A DNA stretch of 51,082 bases, the filler included, from Dimargaris cristalligena (lineage: Eukaryota), in NCBI GenBank assembly GCA_003614675.1. It is 2 parts of 2 records of this genome, joined end to end, with 100 filler letters (N's around TTAATTAATTAA, not from the genome) between each part and the next. Parts side by side here need not be neighbours in the genome. Positions count along the whole stretch, not along the records: positions 1 to 25,511 come from ML002560.1; 1 more part is not named here. One strand, written 5' to 3'. The notes beneath the pieces were generated by a model. The model searched no databases. It was not told where the DNA came from and saw only the letters and a program-made list of their open reading frames with translations. Positions 11,724-34,909 of this stretch are shown piece by piece (position 1 is the first letter of the stretch; every line of letters begins with the position of its first letter). Both the position numbers and the translations under genes were made by a program.

Positions 11724-13632
11724 GGCCCGTTTGTTGTGGGGTATGCGTGGCTTGGGTTAGTTTCGACTGTAATGACATGGTGTTAACATCGTGGTGGGTT
11801 TGGAAGTTCACAGCGGATAATTTCCGGACCCAGCGGGCCCCAGTGACACCTTTACAGCCCAGCGGTTTCTTTAGTTATCATACCAACAAGGGGAGAGGGA
11901 TACCCATTCATCGATTGGCTATCGTCTCTCCATTCCATACTACTCATATGCACGCCTGTTCGGAACCTCAACCAAATGTCACTCTGGTGTATCAACTCGG
12001 ACCGCAATAGGTAGTATTGTTAATGTTCAATCTAAGCAATTAAAAAAATGTTCGACATATTTCTTAATCATGAAAAGGAGTATTGGTCTCCCATTTCCCC
12101 TCCTGAAGGCAGGGATTGATTACCTGGGGAAGGGGTACGGGGAAACCTCACAGGAGTACAGAACTTGCACCCTTTAAATCAGCTGTAATTGGGCAGAAGG
12201 TTTGGTGAATAGGATGATTCCATTAAATGAAATTGGCCGAATAGGGTTCAAGCGGGTAGGAGTTGATACATTTATGACTATTCGTCAAAGTGACCTAGGA
12301 AATACGATAAACAACGTCCCATCAGTTCGCTATACACGAGAGAAAGTGTCGTTTTTATTGGGTTTAATGATTGTTTTATAATGTAGCTTATTGGTGGGAA
12401 TGTAATAAACCCCACACCAGTGTTATCATTCCACAATTGGCTGTTTTCTGTATATATAAAAACATACACGCCCCAACAGGCTCAGAACTCCCCACACTCA
12501 TATATCGGTGTATTTTAGTGCAAGCAAAGCGCCATTGAAACGGAACCATATTCGTTAACGATCCTCCCGTAGATTCCAAACGGAGGTTGGTTAGGAGATA
12601 TTAAAAAGTGCGGAGGGGGGATTCTTGGGGCTAATATGATATTATCTAGGCATGGCCGCTATGATTGGTATGCAATAGTTAAACCAGTACCTAATTGAGG
12701 GGCAGGAATTTATTGAATTGGAATTGGAGACTCAGAAGTATGAGTTAAGCTGGGGTACAGGTGATGCAGGGAATCAGTATAAAAAGTGACTGATTTGAAA
12801 AGGTACGATTCGCCTAATCCAGGGAGGTGCACCTACGGAGGCCGGCGAGTATAGGGTGGTAGACCAGGGTTCACCCCCCGCATGCCTGAGAATGCCAGCA
12901 GTTGGACTGCACGCACTATAATACGATATTTAAGAAAGACTTCCAATGAGGATCCCGGGTTAGAGTTGCTATTGGCGTCTTTAAATATGAGCCGACCTGA
13001 AATTGATTGAGGCTCTAGAGGTCTCTGGGTGTTTCAGCATTCAGTTAAGGCAAATATTATTAAGTCAGTTAGATACTGAATCTGGCAGAGCCCATGCATT
13101 GATTGGCACAAAGTAAAGAACTTGATCAAAAGAAGGTAGTTAACCACACTACTTTAAAAGGGGATTGGAAAAATTGGCAGTAAATTGTTTAGAGCCTGAT
13201 GACCCAGGAGAAAATTCGAAAAGGTCTGGTCTCCAATCGTCACCATATCGGATAATATACACAGCAGCTCTACACTAGTCGTTCAATAAAGAGGTTGTAT
13301 TAAATAAAAACACAGGTATCCAACTCCATGATTGGGGTTAGGGTCAGCAGTAACCCGACTAAATGGAAGAATGGTGGCATTATGGGCACTCAGTAGGTAC
13401 GGTGGCTGTATTAAGACGATCGCTAAACTATAAATGAGAACTGCAATGGGTTGGGCATTGTAATTTATTCTCGTAGTCGGATAGCGGAACGAATTGTGAT
13501 TAGGTAATTAAGGTGGGGTTTATTTAAGCGGGAGAGCAGTAGGCCAAAACATCGATGCAAGAAATATCAAGATATATAGTGGAACTAAATAGACTAATAG
13601 CTAACTTTAAAGCATTCAAGTACAGAATTGAA

Positions 13633-14416
13633 TCACGGGTTATGATCATTAGCGACTTCAACATTGGCAGCGATGCCGTTGTCGAGGAGCTTATCCAGAC
13701 GGCGGGACTGAGAATGGTCGTTGGCCACCTCGGCATTGACCGCAATCACATTGTCTAGGAGCTTGTCGAAACGACGGGATTGGGAATGGTCGTTGGCCAC
13801 CTCAACGTTGGCAGCAATCACATTGTCCAAGAGCTTGGTAAAGCGGCGGGACTGGGAATGGTCGTTGGCCACCTCGGCATTGACCGCAATCACATTGTCT
13901 AGAAGCTTGTAAACGGCGGGATTGGGAATGGTCATTGGCCACCTCAACGTTGGCAGCAATCACATTGTCCAAGAGCTTGGTAAAGCGGCGGGACTGGGAA
14001 TGGTCGTTGGCCACCTCAGCATTGACCGCAATCACATTGTCTAGGAGCTTGTCGAAACGACGGGATTGGGAATGGTCGTTGGCCACCTCGACATTGACGG
14101 CGACGCCGTTATCCAGGAGCTTATCCAAGCGACGAGACTGGGAGTGGTCATTGGCAATTTCCACGTTGGCCGCAATGACATTGTCCAACAGCTTGTCGAA
14201 ACGACGGGATTGGGAATGGTCGTTGGCAATCTCTACATTGGCGGCAATGACATTGTCCAAAAGCTTGTCCAGGCGACGCGATTGGGAGTGGTCATTGGCA
14301 ATTTCCACATTGGCGGCAATGACGTTATCCAGCAGCTTATCGAATCGACGGGACTGGGAATGGTCGTTGGCAACCTCGACGTTGGCCGCAATGACGTTAT
14401 CTAACAGCTTGTCGAA
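13633..14416 (-). repeat. 72-bp tandem coding repeat, 11 units
   Basis: First codons of the units begin at 14416, 14344, 14272, 14200, 14128, 14056, 13984, 13912, 13842, 13770 and 13698. Spacing is 72 bp except for one 70-bp unit. Confidence 0.95.
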
Positions 14417-14656
14417 ACGACGGGCGCGGGAGGGGTGGTTATTCCCCAGGGCGACGGCACGGGGACCATGCTTGAACGTCGCCATATCAGCCCGCTTATC
14501 CTTCGTCTTGGAATCAATCTTTCCCTCGGTAGTAGAACTAAATTTGAAGTCGGTGGACAGGTTGTCGGCACGCGGGGTCAGATCATTTTCGACCGGAAGG
14601 GCACCGGAGGTAAGAGCAAGCATGGTCAGGGCCAGAACAGTGACAGCGAACTTCAT
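13633..14656 (-). CDS. Secreted Kex2-processed repeat precursor B: signal peptide plus 11 head-to-tail 24-aa repeats; 2-bp frameshift at about 13910
   Basis: Signal-like MKFAVTVLALTMLALTSGA, then FDKLLDNVIAANVEVANDHSQS-RR type repeats. Seven are in ORF 13802-14656 and four more in ORF 13633-13959. As sequenced the reading frame stops at 13802. Confidence 0.88.
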
Positions 14657-14873
14657 GTTGGAATTGGTTGGGTTACTAAAGAGGAGATGGGGGGTGGATA
14701 TAAGAATCGATGACTAATTAGATATGGGAATACAGAGAGAGAGAGAGTAACAAGCTAACTATAGATATGGAGTAGGGAATGAGCCGCGGGTCTACGGAGG
14801 CCGGTCGGAGCGATACGGAACGGTGAGGCGGAATGTTCGATTGTCGATTTAGATGGGCGGGTGGCCTGGTATA

Positions 14874-14879
14874 TTTATA
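14874..14879 (-). promoter_or_regulatory. TATA box upstream of precursor B
   Basis: TATAAA(TA) on the minus strand about 220 bp upstream of the ATG at 14656. Confidence 0.5.
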
Positions 14880-17148
14880 TTAGATCTCCAATGGAGCATA
14901 TATGGTCCGGGTTGGAGCTCGCTGGCATATATTGCATTGAATGGCCGGTGAGTAATATGGCTCGCACATTATGACTAGAGCAGATCTATGGTTTCTGGGG
15001 TGGCTTGTTAATTGGAGTGTCCTATAATGGCGGCACAGGAGTCCCTCCGGCTCGGCTCAGTGAGCGCTTCACCATCCCCCTAATCCGCTCGGCTCCTCTT
15101 TCGTAGATTTTATCCAATGGCATCATACTTGGTCCATCCGACCCACCAAGCCAAGTAGCTTAGTGAATGGTGCTCAATATTACATCGCCAACAGTAAACA
15201 GCCTTGTTCATAATTCTTCTACATATGAAAGTTGGAATCCCCTTAACACCTCCTGGCCGTGGGGCTCATTATGAGGGAGGGGTGCTGCATATTTTTGCAG
15301 GGGTTTGAATATCGCTGCTTTCAACTTAACTGTGACCGTAGGGGATGCCCCGGGGGTATAGGGTGGGGAGCCTAAGGGAAATTGGCGGAAAAACTAGAGG
15401 TTGCTAATGGAGAGAGAAAAAGAGGGGGAGAGGTATCACATTATATCCCAGGAGAAACGAAATGTGGAGTGCTATTAATACTGTTTTGATAATCGGTGGA
15501 ACGTGGGGAGGAGTAGTATCGCTTAAATGGCAATCAGTCAATATTCCCACCTCTCAATGGCCCATTAAAGGGAATATTATCCTGGCTCCTTCTGGTGTTC
15601 TGCAGTTTCCCCTTTGCCAATCACTAAGCATACATACATCGCTCCATTAGTCGTGGCCGACTCCGCAATTCGGTCTATTAAGGCCAGTGTTGGTGAAGTG
15701 GTCGCACAGTCGAAGCAGCACAGCAGCCGACAGTGCTCTTGGAAGTATCCTATGGATGATGGGTCTGGTTTTTCCAAATGACCCACAGGTGGCGTGGCTC
15801 TCATAATGAATAATGAAGTGTTGGGCGGTCAGAAGAGGTATCCACTAGGAACAGCGGACCTAATGTCGTTCGGGTACTTTGGCTGGGTTGGCATTATTCA
15901 CCATCCGTCCAGCATCTATAGACGGTTCGGCATGGGTGGAAGCACGCCCCCAGTCATACATTAGAAAATAGAGTATAATTTTAGGCGGTCGAACCTACAA
16001 TGGGTTCTAACCATAAAAAGAAGCGTGTTTTTACCGCGGTAGATCAATCTGATGGACTGACCGCCAATAGTGGCCAAGAATCCCGCCATGGCAGCCGTTT
16101 TAAAGCCAATATTCGGGATAGTCGTTTGATCAGGTTAGTTTGGTGATCGGCGGTACAGTTATCATTGATGCAGATGCGTTCTAGAGTGCTACCCCCCCTA
16201 AAGAAGATTATGTATTTAATAGGTACCCCAAGAAGAACCGTCCCAGATCCTACAGGTTGAGTTACTCCATTATATAAATACTGACGTTGCCGTCCTCTAA
16301 CTCACTGTTAACCGGCCTTAATCTTACTCCATATGCTTCTTTAAATTATATCCATCTCGTTGTAGTTACCGTGAACTACTCTATACTTATTTTTGTAACT
16401 TGGTTGGCGATGCCATTGTATTTTTGAGGCTCACTGAATAGTATAGGCCGCTATGTTGGATAAAGAAGGTATAAAGGAAGTGAGGCTTTAGCGCAGAGCT
16501 TAAATGCCCCTGGCATCTAAAGCTATCGAAGGTGTAGGCCCGATACCGCCGATGATAAGGTGTTCCTAGAATATACCATATTTTGACTCAATTGGCAACC
16601 TCTGGAGCATTGCAGATTATCATTAAAGTCGCTTTTCTGATGATCAAGTACATCTAAATACTTAGTTCAGATGGTTATCACCCGAAAAATCGCTGTGAAA
16701 TAGATAGCATTATTGCCAGTATTGTCACTTTTAACCAATTATAACGGGTCTACCAAATGGCCCATTCTCTATATAGCTGGACTAAGGCTTCTTGATGTAC
16801 ACCCACTACTTTTAAATCCTGCTCTATCCGGCTTCCAATTTGAAATCTAGAGATGTAGAGGCATCCAAATGGTTTACGATGACCCGAATAATCCTATACG
16901 ACAAGGTCAAATTATATGTTGTGAAAACATTGAAAAATCACCTACAGATAATTATTTTTAGAGGGTTATATTATTGCGATATAATGATCGCAGTATCAAT
17001 GTAAATAAAGACATCCGGGGAAGACCAAAGACAGTCTAAACTAAAAGTTATTTGTAATGTTAATAAATGTAAACTAACTAACAGCTATGGTTGCTCACAA
17101 AATCTATATCGGCAGCCACATCGTATTCAGTACTTATTAGGATGGCTT

Positions 17149-17877
17149 TTACGGTTTGGTAGCATCGGCCTGGGGCTCGACGGCGGCCTTAACTGAATCA
17201 TCCGCCTTGACCTCGGGTTCGGGTTTCGTTTCGGGCTTAGTTTCGGGCTCGGCAGCAGGCTTAGCCTCGTCGACCTTGTCCTCGCGGCGAGACCGGGAGT
17301 GGTCATTGAGGAGTTCCAAATTGACACCTACTACATTGTCTAGAAGCTTTTGGAACCGCTTTTCCGGCTTGGTAGCATCGGCCTGGGGCTCGACAGCGGC
17401 CTTAACTGAATCATCCGCCTTGACCTCGGATTCGGGTTTAGTTTCGGGCTCGGCAGCAGGCTTAGCCTCATCGACCTTGTCCTCACGGCGAGACCGGGAG
17501 TAGTCATTGAGGAGCTCCAAATTGACACCCACTACATTGTCCAGAAGCTTTTGGAACCGCTTTTCCGGCTTGGTAGCATCAGCCTGGGGCTCGACGGCGG
17601 CCTTAACTGAATCATCCGCCTTGACCTCTGGTTCGGGTTTAGTTTCAGGCTTAGTTTCGGGCTCGGCAGCAGGCTTAGCCTCGTCGACCTTGTCCTCACG
17701 GCGAGACCGGGAATAGTCATTGAGAAGTTCCAAATTGACTCCCACTACATTGTCCAGAAGCTTCTGGAAACGGGGATGAACCAAGGCGCTGCCGAAGGGC
17801 TCGGCGGGGGCTGCCATAGTAGACTGGGAAGCCAGGGCCAGGACAATGGCAGAGATGATGGAGAGAGTGACCTTCAT
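17149..17877 (-). CDS. Secreted Kex2-processed repeat precursor C (242 aa): signal peptide plus 3 x (core peptide + acidic Pro/Glu/Lys spacer)
   Basis: Signal-like MKVTLSIISAIVLALASQSTMA. Cores PR/KR-FQKLLDNVVGVNLELLND[YH]SRS-RR, each followed by a 43-47 aa spacer EDKVDEAKPAAEPETKP...ADATKP(EKR). Confidence 0.9.
   Translation of the reverse strand: MKVTLSIISAIVLALASQSTMAAPAEPFGSALVHPRFQKLLDNVVGVNLELLNDYSRSRREDKVDEAKPAAEPETKPETKPEPEVKADDSVKAAVEPQADATKPEKRFQKLLDNVVGVNLELLNDYSRSRREDKVDEAKPAAEPETKPESEVKADDSVKAAVEPQADATKPEKRFQKLLDNVVGVNLELLNDHSRSRREDKVDEAKPAAEPETKPETKPEPEVKADDSVKAAVEPQADATKP
17152..17769 (-). repeat. Tandem coding repeat, 3 units of 213, 201 and 204 bp
   Basis: Near-identical units that differ mainly by a 12-bp indel in the spacer and by synonymous changes; the last unit is cut short by the stop codon. 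Confidence 0.95.
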
Positions 17878-20800
17878 GATGGTAGAATTAGGATGGGGTA
17901 ATAATAACGGTAGGAGTTGGTCGTAATTAATGCGGATTCTATTTCAGGAGAGAATAGTCAATGGGTCGTTAAGTGGATCGTAAAAGATTGGAAGAACAAT
18001 TGGAACTGAATGACCAGGGCGGACCAATGTAATTAAAATCACAAGGAAGAGCACAGGGTAAAATATGAGATGGTAGCGAAATAGAACAGAACACAACTAC
18101 TGGAAAAGGGGATATGCTAAAAGAATATATATTTTAAGAGCGTTAAGATACTGTAGCAGTATAGCTGAGGATATTTGGATGTTGAATTGTATTGAAAAAA
18201 CGGGCAATGCGGGCCTTTAAATATCACAAGATCGAGCAGAGAAAACCCCGTTAGGGTAATGTCCAGCAACACTATTCCCCAGTATATTAGCGCGGCTATA
18301 GCGATTCTTTGGAGTTTTTTTTTTTCATTGTAATCGAATCCATTCCCATATTCCGTGACTAAACCGGTCTCGGCGGTGACGGGATCCTGGCAAACTCCAC
18401 GCCCATATTAAAACTCAAACAGCAAGGCTTATTCACACGTAAACGCCTCCGCCACCTGGCTACCAAATCATTATTGCCCCATCCCCCTAAATTGCCTCAT
18501 TAGCACCTAAAAAGGGGATAGGAAAGAATGGGACCTACACCCACCAGGTTACCCATCTCCTGGCCGACAACCAATTCGGGACTTTTGTTTCCTTATTAGA
18601 AAAACTCCTGGTGAGGCATAGGGTATCTCAACACACCCCTACATCGAGGAAGGGGAAAATGCCGATTAGCACGTAGGTGGCCCCTCCCTACGCGCAGAAC
18701 AGGACCGGAAATAGTGTTTTTTTCCATGTACCCACCCTCGACCCGATGTAGCTACTAAAATTAAAATCTGATGAGGTTAGGAGGCTTGGTAAAGGGGTGC
18801 TGGATTTAAGTGACTACTTTAATCCCTTGACCTCCCCAGCCTTTCTTTAATACCATCCATTTTATTGTCATTACAGCCGTCTTGTCATTCGCCAGTAAAG
18901 AGAGATAGGTCCATCTCTCATCATCATTACTAAGAACATTTACATACCTGCTCAACGACACAAGGCACTCCTTGGTCAGGTTTGAGTAATGGGACCAGGT
19001 CATCCAACCCACAGCTACCCCTGACTCGAGGTGAAGCAACAGGAAAGGGTGTGCACCTGAAACAACCATAAGTGTAATCCGGTATTTTTTTAGTATTGCT
19101 CAACTATGCACACCCATCATTATATGAGAAAGACTGGGATGAAGCGCATAGTGAGGCTTTGTGGGGGGCGCGACAGAGGGTAACATTTCCCCAGAATATA
19201 TTGATCACTATCAGATGCACGTCGCCGAAAGGTGACTATTTTACCATCTGATACCACCCTAACCTCACTCCTTAAAAGGGATATGGGGAATAATGAAGGA
19301 GCATCATTAGCAACGGAATGACAAACCTGTTCACCTAAAAAGTGCGTTTTAGCGGAGGGCTCACGGCTGAATTAATGATTACTACCCCGAACCATCACCC
19401 ATGTACTGATCTTCATCTACTACCCTAGGTGGTAGCAACTGGACGCTTCCTTATTTTCAAAACCAAGTGTAATCCTCCAAAGAATCATTGGCATAAAAAA
19501 CGACTCTTAAATTAATAATATCGGTTTACTATCCGCCTTACTACCCCGCCCTCCATTGGTATCGCCCAATTCGGGCAAACTATGCGCGGCTGAAGGTCCA
19601 ACCGAGGTGGATGTTATGCAGTACTCATGGTGGCTAGGAAATTAACGTTGCCACTGATATTCCTCATCAAGTCTGCCCAAGTTATGTTCAGATCTGTGCA
19701 AACTCACCCCCCTCTGGTGAGCTGTTCCAAAGGGAAGTCTGCCTAGGTACACGGCAGTGATTCAAGTGTGCCATAGCATGCAGTCTGTAGGCCGGTGGAG
19801 GCTCAGAGCCAGGTCAGCTAAGTAGGCGCTGTCGGTTTACTCCGTGCTCACTGCGTTTATGCACCGGTAAATCAGTATTGGGTTTACTTTTTTTGTATGG
19901 CCAATGGTTTGAGCGGGAAACAACTAAATGGCATTGGCTATCGTTATAAGATCTCTGCTAGTGCCAATGGTAGGTAGTGGGGCTTTTACCTGAGGCGATC
20001 TTTGGTGGTTGGCTTTACCATTTGTAAGTGTTGCCAGTTCGATCAGTGCCAATCCAGTGGGGGTTTGAGGTTACCGTCGCGGAGCTCATGAATACCCCCC
20101 TCCTCATATTGACATGATTCGAAAATTAACCTTTTACCCCAAGGTCGAATTAATCCCTCAGCTATGCCAAATCAGGGGGTTTCATAACCGTTTATTATCC
20201 CCTCATTTCACCCCCCTTCCTGTCTAGATTCTCCGACCCCGCATTTTAGAATAATCAAACAAACCACATCACACATCATTAAACTGAGTCCACTCCTTAG
20301 TTGTAGGCATGGTCATCAATGCTGACCAAACTTGTATACCCCACAGGGGGGAGTTGCAGGACGCCGAAGTGTGTTCTTCAGCCGCCTCTCCCCCTTATTT
20401 TGGCAGCCTATTTTTGTGCCAAGTACAATCACAGCTGCCTCGCTACACGTTTATATCCCCCCCCCCCAGAAAAACCAGTTAAAAATCGAAGAGTAACTCA
20501 TGACTAAACATTTCATTTAGGTGCATCATTGAAACGGGGGCGCAGTGATTAGGAGAACCTTACGCATCCGCAGGGTAGCGGTACCTCCCCTTTTCCTCTC
20601 AGCATACCCCCTCCCGTAGTTAACTACAAGTGGACGTGACCACTCAGTAGAGTAAATAATAATAATGTTCCTTCATCAAGTGCCTGATTTATCCCGTGGC
20701 GCTTCACTACAAGTCGCTTCATCAAGGATCTTGTAATTAGGTATGGCTTCAACAGGCTATTTGGGCTATATTATATTATACATAGCCACTTCTTTTACAG

Positions 20801-21391: not shown

Positions 21392-23527
21392 CTACTTCTT
21401 AGATTCAGCGATGAATCCTGGCGGGAGTGGGAAAGGGGGGGGGAAGTGAGGTCGGGATTCTGGTAAAGGAAGACTGGTGGTGCTGTGGTGGCTACTAGGG
21501 CTGCCACTCTCCCCTCCGTGGTTGGGATGAGCCATCAGGGGGGCGCGGAGGTGACTGGGGTCCGCATCGTCGGCAGCATGGAAAATGGCCGTGGTATAAT
21601 GGGGGCGGGGTAGGGAGTCCAGGAGACTGTCCATGTCGTTGCCCTGATAATCGGCAGGGGGAATGGGGCTGTGGGGTAGGGAGGTCAGGAGCTGACTCTC
21701 AGTTGGTTCCTCCCCTTCCTCCCCGTCATCGCTATCCTCCTTTTTGACAGCATACCGGTTTCCGGGGGGATTGGGCTCTGACAGGGTCGGATCAGCAGGT
21801 CCTAATAAAAACGAAGAGGTGGACCCGTTGGGGCCGGTACCGCCGTGGGAGGGACTCGAACGATATCCCGACGTATACAACCCCTGATTGAGGAGGGGTG
21901 GGTTGATGTCGGCGTTATCATCGTCGGAGTCCGCTTCGGGCGCCATAAAATCGTACTTGCGGGTAAGCTCGCTGATCAGGGCCGTACTTTCGGGGTCGTC
22001 GAAGAGTAAGTCCTCAATCTCCCGGGTTTTCAGGGACAGCCGGCGGTCGGTTTGACCCAGGTACCGGGACTTGGCCGCGGAACCCGCTAGGCGGGACGAC
22101 CGGGGGGAATCGACCCCCAAAGAAGACGCCTGGGGGGTGGCGGCCTTCTCCACTTTAATGCGTGTGGAGGGCGCGGGCGAGGTCAACTCGCTCGAAGACG
22201 GTGGTTTAACCGACATCGTGGCCGAGTTAGAGGCAATGGGGGTGCCCCCGGGACTGGCCGTAGGGGCGGTGGCGTACCGCTTCATGAGGGCGGTGATTTC
22301 GGGACTCATACCATCATGACTCAGGGAAATGTCGTGGTGGGGGGTCGGGTGTGGCCCGCCTCGACTATGCACTGAGTATGGTTGACTCCGGTCCCTCACA
22401 CTACCCCTGTCCAGAACTTCATCCTTGGGGGCGGTTTTGTATCGCCCATGGCTAAAGGCTGCCCGTGGGGTCTTTTCTATAACAAAGCGACGGATATCAC
22501 TGGGTGTCGAAGAGAACGAGTATTCGTCCGAGGCCGAGGGACCGCCCCGGTGGGGCTGGCTGGAGTAATTGTCCATAATTGGGGCATCCCCATCGAACGA
22601 TGACAGGAGATTGCCGACCGGGCGCTGGATAGTGGACTGAACATCGCCATTCAGCAGACTGGTACCATAGAGGTCGCTCCCGATTTTGGAAGGGGTATGT
22701 TGGGTGGGGTCCATAAAGGAGGTCCGGGCGGCCGAGCCATGAGGGGGACCGTACGACAAGCCCGCTTTACTATGGCTATGGGCCGTAGCCAAAGAAAATT
22801 CCGGGCGGAACTCGTGGGCGAGCCGTGAACCCTGGCGGGGCTGACTCCGCTGGAGAGTCGATGAAGGCCCGCCGTCCCCGCTCCGGATGGATCGGAAACC
22901 AGCCGGTGTTCCCGCTAGAGAGGGGGTTTGCAGGACTTTGATGGAGCCCACTAGGCGGCTGTGTACCGAATCCGGAGTGGCAATAACCGAGGCTTGGCTG
23001 GGGGCGTACCAACCACCACTGCGGTCCCCCATTCCGGCGTAGCCCATGGCCTCATCGATATCATCGAGGGGGTAGTTGAACGATACTTGGCCATCTACGA
23101 CTGATGCGGTACCGTCGGCTTCACCCGGAACGGGGCGGGCGAATATTTCGAAAAATTGGAGCCAGGGCTATTTCAGAGTGGCAATAATTTTGATGGATAT
23201 TTGGGATAGGGGTTTTTAGAACTGTATGGTTAAAACAGGTCAAGGTAGTGATCGATTGTCTATTGCTGGGATGGCGCAATGGATATTGGTGAGTGGGGAG
23301 GGGCAGTCCAAACTTACTTTACATATGTCCAGGAGCCGTTTCGATACAGCGCCTAGTTTTTCGACGCGAGGTAGTAATTCGCCTTCCAGGTTTTTGTGAG
23401 TAACGGAGAAGTTGGCGTCGATTTCCTGCAGTAAATAAGTGATGTTTTGTTCGAGTAATTCGATTTGCGCGGTGGGGCTGAGGGACTCAAAGGCCACCTG
23501 CGGCTTGAGGGGAAGCTGGCTGCTCAT
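21392..23527 (-). CDS. ASK1: DASH/Dam1 complex subunit Ask1 with long disordered Ser/Pro-rich C-terminus; exons 23527-23318 and 23167-21392 (possibly extending to 21151)
   Basis: IELLEQNITYLLQEIDANFS...LLPRVEKLG...K|PWLQFFE matches the Ask1 N-terminal domain as I recall it (LEQxITxxLQEIDxNF...W..FFE). Intron 23317-23168 (GTAAGT...TAG) joins in frame with ORF 21392-23047. Confidence 0.85.
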
Positions 23528-24154
23528 GACGGAAAACCGGGACCTGGTAGACTAAGGGAATGGGCGGGTTGAAATGGAGGTATATATACAATCAGGTGCA
23601 ATGAAGAGGGAGGAGATGGGACGAATGTGGGTTCGCTTAACGAATGGAGGCCCATGGGAGACTGCTCGTCGAGACGGGGTGGACCAGGCTAGGGATCGGG
23701 AGGTTTGACTTGGCCCCACGACTGGCGCTAAATGTGTACGGGTTTTTTTCTGTGGGTTTGTTTATGCCTAGGTAACCGTCCCAGCTATGGGTTTCCTCTA
23801 GACTAGTCAACAAGGCCAAAAGAAGGGGAGCTAAAGGGTTAAAGCTGGCCTTCATGTTCCTGATAAACTACATACTCCCGGCCACCTGCCTTGGACAAGA
23901 AGGCCATGTTCTGAAGAACTTGCTAGGTGTTGCTGTTTTGAAGTGTGGTATGTACGTCGATGGGAGAAGCGCTTTCAAACTCCGCCTTCTAACCCAATAT
24001 TATTCTTTTGGGCTTAGGCTGACTCTACCAGCTGAACTGCTCCTGTTTAATTCGTCACTACTTCGCTTAACGCTCTCTCCCCCACTCGCGTGTGCTTCTT
24101 CTTTCCTTACTCCCTTTATATCCCACCACAACTTATCCCTTTCCCATATTTACC

Positions 24155-32134: not shown

Positions 32135-34909
32135 CTAGGCAATATCACCCACGGGAGCAGCGATAACGGACGAGTCGGATGCTTGGGCTTGTTGAGCCAT
32201 GTTCCACATCTTACTATAAATACCACCCCGGGCCACTAACTCCAAGTGGGTGCCAGTTTCGGCCACCCGACCGTGATCCAGGACAATAATTTGGTCGGCA
32301 TCCCTAATCGTGCTGAGCCGGTGGGCAAGGATGACTGTAGTGCGGGTTTTGCCGGAGCGTCGAATATGTTCCATAATTTTAGTTTCGGAAATGCTATCGA
32401 GGGCTGCTGTGGCCTCATCCAATAGAAGGATGGGCGCCTGCTTAACCAGGGCCCGGGCCAGTCCCATCCGCTGCAATTCACCGCCACTCATGGCACCCCC
32501 TTGCGCATCGAAGGGGCTGTCGAAACCATGTGGTAGGGCCATGATCTTGTCGCATAATCCCACCGACCGAGCTGCGCTGATCACATCCGCGCGGGACACC
32601 AGTTTATTTTGGCAAATTGCACCGTAGGCGATGTTGAAGTAAATCGACCCCGGAAACCCCGTAAAAAATTGGTTAACGAGGGCCATTTGGGACCTTAGTT
32701 CACGTTGGGCCATCCTGCGGATATCCACACCGCCAATTAGAATGGCCCCACTTGACACGTCCATCATACGCATAATCAAGTTGAGTATGGTAGATTTACC
32801 GTGGCCACTAATTCCGACAATGGCCGTGGTACGCCCGACTGGAATGGAGAAGTTAAGATCTTTCAGAACGGGGGTTCGGACGTCGTATGCGAATGATACA
32901 TTTCGAAATTCAATTGTATCGCCGTCGGCGAGATGGAATGGGATGGTCTGAGCGCTGTCGTCATCCGGAGTGTCGCCAGTCTGGTATATTTTTTCTATTA
33001 AATCCTTATGCCTGGTGGTGGTTTTGAACTCTACAATTAGAAAGTTGGCCAGTTTGCTGATTTTCTCGGCAATGAGATCATAGGCATGAATAATAAAGAG
33101 GCACTCGGTGTGGGATATGCTACCTGCATGTAATTTCTTAATACAAAATGCTACCCATAGGAAATACAATGCGCGGCTCAGGAGTGTGCTATAGAAGACT
33201 TGGGGAAATGCTGCACTGGCCTCCTCCACCTGCCAGTGCTTCGGGAGATGCTGAATGAGCTGTTGGTATTCAAACTGTTCGCTGTTCAGTAGTTTGTGAC
33301 TGCGGCTATACCCAAGTCGAGAAAGAACATTCGCCGGGTGGAATACACTCGCCACACTCCACGGAGTATTGAGAACATAGGCCAAATAATGGGCATAATT
33401 AATGAAACAGTTCAGGGATAAGTATATCAGAGCCAGAAATACAATTTCAAACCCAGTTGTTTGCCCCACACTGATCAGGAGAAAACTGACACCTGTCAAA
33501 CATCCCATCAGCTGAAGTAGACTCGTGTGGAAATGTTTGACTAAATCCACATACCACGTCAAGTAATACATCGGATACGCCAGAGGACAACTCAGTTCCC
33601 GATTTAACTCAAGTATACGGCTGTAGACATTTTGACTCCAATGATTACGCATCAGTCGGTCACAATGTGCGATGATCCAATGGAAGACAGCTGGCAGGAT
33701 TTCACTGATAACCTGGCTCGGGAAATAGTAATAGCACCAATAACCGACAATGGTGGTGGTCTGGGTCACGACACTGGCCTGAAATTGAAGATGAGCCTGT
33801 GATTGAAGATGAGCCAGACCTTCGCGAATTAGGCCCAGGAAGAAAAGCAGAGCTGTGCCAATGTAAACCTCCCGATTGAATAACATTGAAGAGACTATGG
33901 TTGAGTAGATGTTAATTTCATCAAAGAAGAACGAAGGTTCGTGTGGACTAATATCGGGGTTCGTCTCGGTTAGGTCTCTGCAAGGTAATTCTGGCGGGCC
34001 GGCCAGCTTCCAGTATGCCAAATTGAGGGTGCGACTCGTATATTTATCAAGTTCGATTTCGCGAAGCAACCTGGCCAAATTTGTCCATGCTAATCCGGAT
34101 GGTTGGCTTATAATAAGGGTGGATTTCGTACAGCAGGATGGTCCCATTATACAAAGGTCCGGAAAACACCAGAATATGCAGCGGGCAGCCCATGCAGGAA
34201 TTTGGGTCAGGGCAGTGGCAAGACCGATGCCAATGATTGGAATGCCATAGTAGCGGTGAAAGTGGAACTGCTGAATGGTGATGCCCGCGATTAGGGTAGC
34301 CCATACAATGGTTGAGCCAAGAGTGCAAACTGATATCAGTGGCAAGTGGAAAATATTTCCACAGCACAGAGCTACAGCGGTGACTTCGGCCAGGGCCATG
34401 CCCAGGTTGACCAGCCAAAACTCGAGATGCATGGTACCGCGGAGGCTCAAACGGTAAAGCCACAGGGTGGTGTCCAACTGGGTAACTGGCCGCGAACTCC
34501 GGCGCTGATAAAGGAAATGGCCCCAGGCCACGGTTAAAGCTATACCACGTAATGCCCCACATGCAAGCTGTAGCTGTACGGCAGGGAATCCTCTGCTACC
34601 GGACCACCCAACTAGGGCTACGGCGTGGATTAAGGCCAGTAGGGTTTGTACACATATACTTGCACAAATGGCTACGCGTTGGATGTTTTCTAAACGAACG
34701 TTAATGATCAATTGGCGTTCTTTAGGGACCACTGGGTAGGGTAACGAGCGGAAGCCCTCCGGGACGCTTGCTGCCACTCGATAGGAAGGGCTGCTTTGGA
34801 AGTGCAGGAATCGGCGGAGATAGACTGTTGAACTAATAACCGCAAGGCTGGATCCTATAGGGCCCCCAAGTAGGAGGAATGCGTCCCCAAGAGAGGTAAG
34901 GGCGGTCAT
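32135..34909 (-). CDS. ABCB-family half transporter (HMT1/ATM1-like NBD) with long hydrophobic N-terminal region
   Basis: IEFRNVSFAY, Walker A GISGHGKST, Q-loop LVNQ, signature MSGGELQR, Walker B ILLLDEATAALD, H-loop AHRLSTI, ETGTHLEL. First ATG at 34909 (the ORF-track start 34936 is TTG). Apparently intronless. Confidence 0.85.
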   Translation of the reverse strand: MTALTSLGDAFLLLGGPIGSSLAVISSTVYLRRFLHFQSSPSYRVAASVPEGFRSLPYPVVPKERQLIINVRLENIQRVAICASICVQTLLALIHAVALVGWSGSRGFPAVQLQLACGALRGIALTVAWGHFLYQRRSSRPVTQLDTTLWLYRLSLRGTMHLEFWLVNLGMALAEVTAVALCCGNIFHLPLISVCTLGSTIVWATLIAGITIQQFHFHRYYGIPIIGIGLATALTQIPAWAARCIFWCFPDLCIMGPSCCTKSTLIISQPSGLAWTNLARLLREIELDKYTSRTLNLAYWKLAGPPELPCRDLTETNPDISPHEPSFFFDEINIYSTIVSSMLFNREVYIGTALLFFLGLIREGLAHLQSQAHLQFQASVVTQTTTIVGYWCYYYFPSQVISEILPAVFHWIIAHCDRLMRNHWSQNVYSRILELNRELSCPLAYPMYYLTWYVDLVKHFHTSLLQLMGCLTGVSFLLISVGQTTGFEIVFLALIYLSLNCFINYAHYLAYVLNTPWSVASVFHPANVLSRLGYSRSHKLLNSEQFEYQQLIQHLPKHWQVEEASAAFPQVFYSTLLSRALYFLWVAFCIKKLHAGSISHTECLFIIHAYDLIAEKISKLANFLIVEFKTTTRHKDLIEKIYQTGDTPDDDSAQTIPFHLADGDTIEFRNVSFAYDVRTPVLKDLNFSIPVGRTTAIVGISGHGKSTILNLIMRMMDVSSGAILIGGVDIRRMAQRELRSQMALVNQFFTGFPGSIYFNIAYGAICQNKLVSRADVISAARSVGLCDKIMALPHGFDSPFDAQGGAMSGGELQRMGLARALVKQAPILLLDEATAALDSISETKIMEHIRRSGKTRTTVILAHRLSTIRDADQIIVLDHGRVAETGTHLELVARGGIYSKMWNMAQQAQASDSSVIAAPVGDIA

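Follow-up and report, generated by a model that had tools for sequence, protein, structure and literature searches.

KEX2-processed repeat proteins (KEPs) are precursors that combine a signal peptide, repeated cores and dibasic sites (Le Marquer 2019, PMC6339444; Umemura 2020, PMC7329392). In the survey data of PMC7329392, KEPs are most numerous per genome in Zoopagomycota, at 11.56 per strain, and Table S2 of that study assigns 11 stand-alone KEPs to Dimargaris cristalligena, three of them with consecutive accession numbers and all of them listed there without sequences or functions. Kex2 is reported to accept proline at P2 and to prefer an aliphatic residue at P4 (PMC8528282), and Kex1 is described as trimming the basic residues after the Kex2 cut (PMC9769878). 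The KEP-type precursor layout is shared by the dikaritins ustiloxin, phomopsin and asperipin-2a, and candidalysin is a linear KEP product, as described in PMC9769878.

Peptides of this kind can also act at surfaces. The secreted precursor of Ustilago maydis Rep1 carries about a dozen repeats and is reported to be cut by Kex2, with no tailoring enzymes, into linear amphipathic peptides that form fibrils for aerial growth and attachment (PMC3133707, PMC4617103). Streptomyces chaplins are described as small secreted surfactants that then form beta-rich fibrils on aerial hyphae (PMC3079736). Strict hydrophobins were reported in one of six Zoopagomycota genomes (10.1101/2022.08.19.504535, the text of which does not name Dimargaris), and PMC6784888 places hydrophobins outside Dikarya only in Caulochytrium and one Mortierella. 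Aerial growth and surface attachment with few or no hydrophobins are an open question for early-diverging fungi. Here we describe a D. cristalligena locus that shares with Rep1 a Kex2-type precursor predicted to be secreted, a comparable number of repeats, predicted amphipathic peptides and the lack of tailoring enzymes nearby.

Layout of the precursor genes and the gene B array

A stretch of 51,082 nucleotides, filler included, from assembly GCA_003614675.1 (the window) was used for the analysis. Three genes, A, B and C, share one strand. An aldehyde-dehydrogenase-family gene flanks them on the left and ASK1 on the right, and non-coding DNA of 2.1-3.5 kb separates the genes. A six-frame scan of the window revealed one 22-residue core common to genes A (two copies), B (11) and C (three), 16 copies in total, and found no core outside these genes in the whole window. 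The features are as follows.

8109-10101, + strand: aldehyde-dehydrogenase-family gene (PRO2-like, by family match), left flank, outside the system
10720-11532, - strand: gene A, 270 aa, with predicted signal peptide, pro-region, amphipathic 11-mer segment and two cores
11170-11295, - strand: gene A residues 80-121, an acidic Gly/Leu/Val/Asp/Thr/Lys segment ending at RR, with 11-residue (3/11 helix) amphipathic periodicity
11097-11032 and 10923-10858, - strand: gene A cores, each flanked by KR and RR
13633-14656, - strand: gene B, with predicted signal peptide, pro-region and 11 head-to-tail cores at the DNA level
14417-14656, - strand: predicted signal peptide of gene B, ending near residue 19, followed by the pro-region up to residue 80 with PR, KR and RR sites
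13913-14416, - strand: gene B cores 1-7, 22 residues plus RR each, in frame with the signal peptide
13909-13912, - strand: break where copy 8 begins, with 4 nt in place of the 6 nt of the other copies, frame shifted
13633-13908, - strand: gene B cores 8-11, in a second frame ending at 13633, not decayed
17149-17877, - strand: gene C, 242 aa, with predicted signal peptide, three cores and acidic Pro/Ala/Glu/Lys spacers; cut sites PR, KR and RR
17769-17704, 17556-17491 and 17355-17290, - strand: gene C cores
21392-23551, - strand: ASK1 (DASH_Ask1 match in 23243-23551), right flank, outside the system

The flanks had been named PRO2 and ASK1 in an earlier note on this DNA. The second name agrees with the DASH_Ask1 match; the first agrees at the level of the aldehyde-dehydrogenase family, the name PRO2 itself being carried over from that note.

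By a hydropathy heuristic, the products of A, B and C have a basic start and a hydrophobic core (best 12-residue Kyte-Doolittle mean 2.5-2.7), and a hydropathy scan found no later membrane segment in them; the precursors would enter the secretory pathway through this putative signal peptide. The pre-pro region is homologous between genes A and B. Comparison of the three promoters with random trios revealed no common motif beyond chance, and codon use of the repeat genes is similar to that of neighbouring housekeeping genes, with no clear sign of very high expression. DNA run X5 differs from window positions 10500-18000 by at least nine base differences and two small indels among those listed. 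Three of the changes fall in genes A and B; only one of them changes a residue, which belongs to the pro-region of gene B, and no core is altered. The gene C spacers (17149-17703, - strand) are acidic Pro/Ala/Glu/Lys-rich peptides of 43-47 residues with basic sites at their ends; they could keep the precursor soluble or themselves be products.

Analysis of the 91 stop-to-stop frames of at least 50 aa between the two flanks identified no DUF3328/UstYa, tyrosinase, methyltransferase or peptidase, as the earlier note had held, and DUF3328 and tyrosinase were likewise absent from 101 further frames of the window. Family matches occurred in three of the 91 frames, all in repeat or low-complexity sequence on genes B and C or antisense to them. 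Two matches passed the cut-off, KAP_NTPase on a low-complexity spacer of gene C (E 2.7e-6) and, on an antisense frame, Med26. Both were discarded as artefacts of the repeats.

Gene B had been described as 11 copies without spacers. The array is real, since Tandem Repeats Finder identified a 72-nt period at 13661-14424 (10.6 copies, score 807), the unit of which encodes 24 residues on the - strand, that is, the 22-residue core plus RR. All 11 copies are present at the DNA level, but only seven are in frame from the ATG at 14656, copy 8 being 2 nt short; the spacing is 72 nt throughout except between copies 7 and 8, where it is 70 nt. After the seventh core this frame enters a 36-residue out-of-frame tail and stops at 13802. 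Since the tail is preceded by an RR site and would be cleaved away, gene B would still function with seven cores. An intron restoring the frame was also considered and rejected: 50 GT-AG pairs were found, none with a consensus-like donor. The predicted yield is 7 or 11 cores from gene B, two from gene A and three from gene C.

Copies 8 and 10 differ from copy 6 at 2 of 60 nt and copy 9 from copy 7 at 1 of 60 nt, while copy 11 is shortened to 21 residues and contains proline. Because copies 8-11 are not decayed (pN/pS 0.08), the break at copy 8 is either recent or an assembly artefact. Contigs from the four DNA runs compared, out of five listed, showed no indel at the break, and among the pieces listed none spans 13886-14059. 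The listed pieces continue without branching through nodes at which branches would be expected if the window were copied exactly, in gene B and also in the unbroken gene C; the contigs are therefore simplified across repeat variants and favour neither alternative. The gene B product was absent from protein searches spanning 17-2000 residues (in part limited to the best ~8000 candidates) and from the search of representative proteins, whereas A and C were returned, and it may be unannotated.

Processing sites, precursor class and relatives

In-frame cores are preceded by KR, RR or PR in all 17 listed cases, including those of a relative from Dispira (see below). A basic site is also present 3' of each in-frame core except copy 11, and this includes the cores separated by spacers. 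It is highly probable, by analogy with other KEPs in which these steps are established, that a kexin cuts after KR, RR or PR and that a Kex1-type carboxypeptidase trims the basic residues. The product would very likely be a linear, unmodified peptide of 21-22 residues. The core, and not the array, is the conserved unit, because it stands isolated between unrelated spacers in gene A, gene C and the Dispira protein.

By the features checked, namely a predicted signal peptide and repeated cores at Kex2 sites, the products of A, B and C are KEPs. They have no DUF3328 neighbour, as is the case for 78% of KEPs and for 185 of 185 Zoopagomycota KEPs in the data of PMC7329392, where DUF3328 is recorded in none of the six phyla other than Ascomycota and Basidiomycota. 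To lack it is normal in Zoopagomycota and hence uninformative about this locus. They differ from catalogued KEPs in that the core has no Pfam match and that three paralogues with three layouts share one core. Two core motifs had no occurrence in the supplement text of PMC7329392 (three files) or PMC6339444 (four files). Judged from these comparisons of sequence, the core is a new family inside a known precursor class. Literature searches outside subscription journals found nothing on Dimargaris and Kex2 and, judged by title, nothing on repellent or amyloid peptides in Zoopagomycota, and the literature examined gave no function for any Zoopagomycota KEP.

A core profile (12 of the 16 cores) was searched against 1.84 billion representative proteins at E up to 0.001. 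Three proteins were returned: those of genes A and C and one of 102 residues (38.3 bits, E 6.4e-5), a Dispira simplex hypothetical protein at NCBI, which is the sole relative found outside the window. It has a predicted signal peptide and two cores, each preceded by LHPR. The first core is followed by a single Arg, and a 9-residue tail after RR resembles a degenerate core. As the Dispira match lies so near the threshold, remoter relatives would escape the profile. Nothing like Rep1 was among the matches to this profile. Both Dimargaris and Dispira belong to Dimargaritales, described as haustorial parasites of other fungi (PMC9866270).

Other searches were less productive. Metagenome contigs gave 180 pattern matches, none of which was confirmed. 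The ESM Atlas gave a best score of 0.84 for gene B, to be taken as a lead only, and nothing usable for the Dispira protein. Three PDB matches to the core profile (E 0.61-1.5) are at chance level and were rejected; two of them are OAA-family lectins, in which the similar short stretch is presumably a beta-strand, and they were not used as evidence.

Composition, constraint and shape of the core

Composition was tabulated for 15 window cores, omitting copy 8, the first two residues of which are out of frame. The earlier note had described the core as acidic, with three regularly spaced asparagines and without Cys, Trp or Pro. The asparagines are found as described, at positions 7, 12 and 17: among 17 cores, two of them from Dispira, N12 and N17 are present in all and N7 in 16. 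Cys, Trp and Pro are absent from 14 of the 15 tabulated cores, the exception being the proline of copy 11. All 15 are net acidic (-1 to -3, with His taken as neutral), but acidity is not conserved, since the Dispira cores carry +1. Residues 14 and 18 are Glu and Asp in window cores and Lys and Lys in Dispira, and the aliphatic/Asn pattern is kept despite this change of sign. Cores are slightly hydrophilic (GRAVY -0.05 to -0.35). Aromatic residues occur as Phe at position 1 (10/15) and Tyr at position 19 (two of three gene C cores); position 1 is F/L/I and position 19 is H/Y/N, so that no aromatic residue is conserved.

Comparison of gene B copies over core residues 3-18 gave a pN/pS of 0.088 across 55 pairs (pS 0.66, pN 0.058), and between genes the ratio is 0.19-0.32; these are uncorrected proportions from pairs that are not independent. 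Such low ratios indicate that the peptide sequence is constrained by purifying selection. Ten distinct core 18-mers occur together in one genome.

The earlier note pointed to a beta-branched, partly alternating central stretch. Hydrophobic periodicity, weighted by gene over four genes, peaks at 90 degrees (0.75) for residues 1-9 and at 170-180 degrees (0.53 at 180) for residues 11-18, with a flat spectrum for 8-18. A strand-like face does exist: over 12 distinct cores from four genes and two genera, positions 9, 11, 13 and 15 hold an aliphatic residue in every one of 48 cells, against 30 of 60 cells at positions 8, 10, 12, 14 and 16, which accept Gly, Ser, Asn, Glu and Lys. The alternative helical face (8/11/12/15/16) is aliphatic in 44 of 60 cells, with Gly at 8 and 16. 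These counts are descriptive, as related cores are not independent. In one gene B lineage positions 11 and 13 swap Ala and Val, a single event, as same-face strand neighbours might. What the note had missed is the helical periodicity of residues 1-9. Residues 1-11 have a helical moment of 0.48-0.57 and a strand moment near zero. Against controls, the helical periodicity of residues 1-11 is at the 87th-91st percentile (shuffle p 0.03-0.08) and the strand periodicity of residues 12-18 only at the 67th-89th. A continuous helix is disfavoured, because it would turn the aliphatic residue 13 towards the polar face and hide the invariant N12 in the hydrophobic one. We interpret the core as a short amphipathic helix, formed by residues 1-9, that leads into an amphipathic, strand-like part.

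Aggregation scores are ordinary. On an AGGRESCAN-type scale, a hot spot is present in 11 of the 15 window cores. These rank at the 40th-49th percentile among 3984 control 22-mers taken from housekeeping genes of the window, and 40-70% of shuffled cores score as high in hot-spot area. No hot spot was found on this scale in the three gene C cores or in copy 11. Scales of this type penalise Asn and may overlook amyloids built on Asn ladders. In the data reported in PMC3133707, TANGO flagged 14 of 16 secreted proteins and Waltz 15; with nearly all of them flagged, these predictors would be poor discriminators. AlphaFold2 predicted every core as helix, with no strand, both for seven gene B cores from a single sequence (mean pLDDT 47, pTM 0.33) and for the Dispira protein from a 7-row alignment (mean pLDDT 64, pTM 0.28). 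These weak models say little on fibrils and lend no support to amyloid.

The amphipathic segment of gene A shows a different periodicity. Its 42 residues have a moment of 0.47 at 98 degrees, a value reached by none of 10000 shuffles. All 25 PDB matches are alpha-synuclein chains (E 0.11-2.2, not significant), and the likeness, as far as the alignments go, is a shared pattern and not homology. An 11-residue periodicity is the geometry of lipid- and interface-binding helices. The segment may be a second released product.

Roles considered for the putative released peptide

The reading we prefer, with a probability of about 40%, is that the core, released as a linear peptide without modification, adsorbs at interfaces and assembles there into a coat or adhesive. 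It would be an analogue of the Ustilago repellents, to which the profile search revealed no homology. Residues 1-9 would form a two-turn amphipathic helix docking on an air-water, lipid or cell-wall surface, and residues 9-17 a strand with an all-aliphatic face (9, 11, 13, 15) opposite an Asn/charged face (12, 14). The strands of neighbouring molecules would stack, N12 and N17 perhaps forming Asn ladders. The resulting interfacial film or adhesive would lie on aerial hyphae, sporangiophores, spores or appressoria and play the part that hydrophobins and Ustilago repellents have in Dikarya. From gene A, the acidic 11-mer segment would add a further product that binds interfaces. This assignment of function draws on pattern and analogy.

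Self-assembly, which the earlier note had proposed, is plausible given the i,i+2 aliphatic face at 9-15, the constancy of N12 and N17 and the scarcity of hydrophobins in this phylum, while the ordinary aggregation scores and helical models speak against an amyloid; true cross-beta fibrils are on balance unlikely. Up to three net negative charges per core would also oppose in-register stacking at neutral pH. Two arguments of that note lose force: KEPs commonly have many copies whatever their function, and the absence of DUF3328, being phylum-wide, favours no linear-peptide role over another. The many conservative core variants in one genome, we infer, suit a material better than a receptor ligand.

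Comparison with described surface peptides reveals both likenesses and differences. The core (21-22 residues) is shorter than the Rep1 peptides, reported as 34-53 residues; fibrils and surface activity are reported as demonstrated for Rep1 (PMC3133707, PMC4617103) and are predictions for the core. Chaplins would be functional analogues if the coat reading holds, but they are bacterial and not Kex2-cut, and PMC3079736 describes a very low helix propensity and conserved prolines, in contrast to the helical half and the lack of Pro in the core; A, B and C gave no chaplin Pfam match. If the preferred reading is true, the core is a convergent counterpart of the Ustilago repellents and a minimal surface-active peptide; if it is false, the core is an ordinary orphan KEP product. 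A more far-reaching version is that Dimargaritales, in a phylum mostly without hydrophobins, independently evolved a repellent system. In it the three genes would supply a 22-residue helix-plus-strand peptide that adsorbs at interfaces and turns into an Asn-laddered cross-beta coat, helped by the co-secreted acidic 11-mer helix of gene A, and the coat would allow hyphae to rise into the air or to adhere to those of the host. The core would then be a functional-amyloid surface peptide of an early-diverging fungus, much shorter than Rep1 peptides or chaplins; we regard this version as doubtful.

The N-terminal helix pattern fits membrane or receptor binding equally well. The core could be an amphipathic helix directed at the host fungus or at competing microbes, the membranes or lipids of which it would bind or perturb like candidalysin, itself a linear KEP product (PMC9769878), or an anionic antimicrobial peptide. 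The strong helical and near-zero strand moments of residues 1-11, the AlphaFold helices, the gene A segment and the haustorial mycoparasitism reported for Dimargaritales (PMC9866270) are consistent with this role. Window cores are, however, acidic and hydrophilic, the sign of the charge differs between genera, and the misplacement of N12 and residue 13 in a continuous helix applies here as well, so that we consider a membrane-active helix rather unlikely.

Similarly improbable is a diffusible signal or host-directed effector acting via a receptor or protein target, as hormone- or pheromone-like KEP products do. No function is known for most KEPs that lack DUF3328, and several of the linear products that have been characterised serve as signals or effectors; strong purifying selection with species-specific charge would fit a ligand, and the ESM Atlas places an alpha-factor cluster at 0.79, below its threshold for leads. 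The coexistence of ten distinct core 18-mers in one genome argues against a ligand. So does comparison with alpha-type pheromones, the precursors of which have, as here, a pre-pro region followed by tandem cores: none of the 17 cores begins with a Ste13 XA/XP dipeptide after the cut site, and A, B and C gave no match to MF_alpha or MF_alpha_N in Pfam. Alpha-type pheromones are about half the length of the core, and the cores here are also more variable. An alpha-type pheromone is thus unlikely, in agreement with the earlier note.

The precursors might also be cut incompletely, gene B then being a whole repeat protein in the wall, as a helical array or a beta-solenoid with one rung per 24 residues. 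At its QSRR sites gene B lacks both the preferred Lys at P2 and an aliphatic P4, and the array has no spacers, but RR is described as a standard site (PMC9769878), the core stands alone in A, C and Dispira, set off by cut sites and unrelated spacers, and the predicted array fold is not confident (pTM 0.33); we give this little credence. Least probable of all is a RiPP role, in which enzymes from genes elsewhere in the genome would modify or cyclise the cores: the architecture is of the dikaritin type (PMC9769878) and the enzyme search covered the window only, but DUF3328 and tyrosinase are missing from all frames searched, DUF3328 is not detected in Zoopagomycota in the data of PMC7329392, and no Tyr or Trp is conserved. 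A dikaritin, which the earlier note had also set aside, is unlikely for want of a nearby DUF3328 or tyrosinase gene and of a conserved aromatic residue, and the core is much longer than those of dikaritins. As the core is short, Cys-free and easily synthesised, a coat, a membrane agent and a signal are separable by biophysics.

Some further observations concern the rest of the window. A tRNA-Arg(ACG) gene lies at 2127-2201 (- strand). Positions 3319-3700 (- strand) hold a small hydrophilic Gly/Asn/Lys/Glu-rich reading frame without a Pfam match, probably an exon of a small gene. An intronless ABC-transporter-family frame of 924 aa with a long membrane-like N-terminal part occupies 32135-34909 (- strand), and its GC3 (0.53) is the lowest among the nine genes measured.
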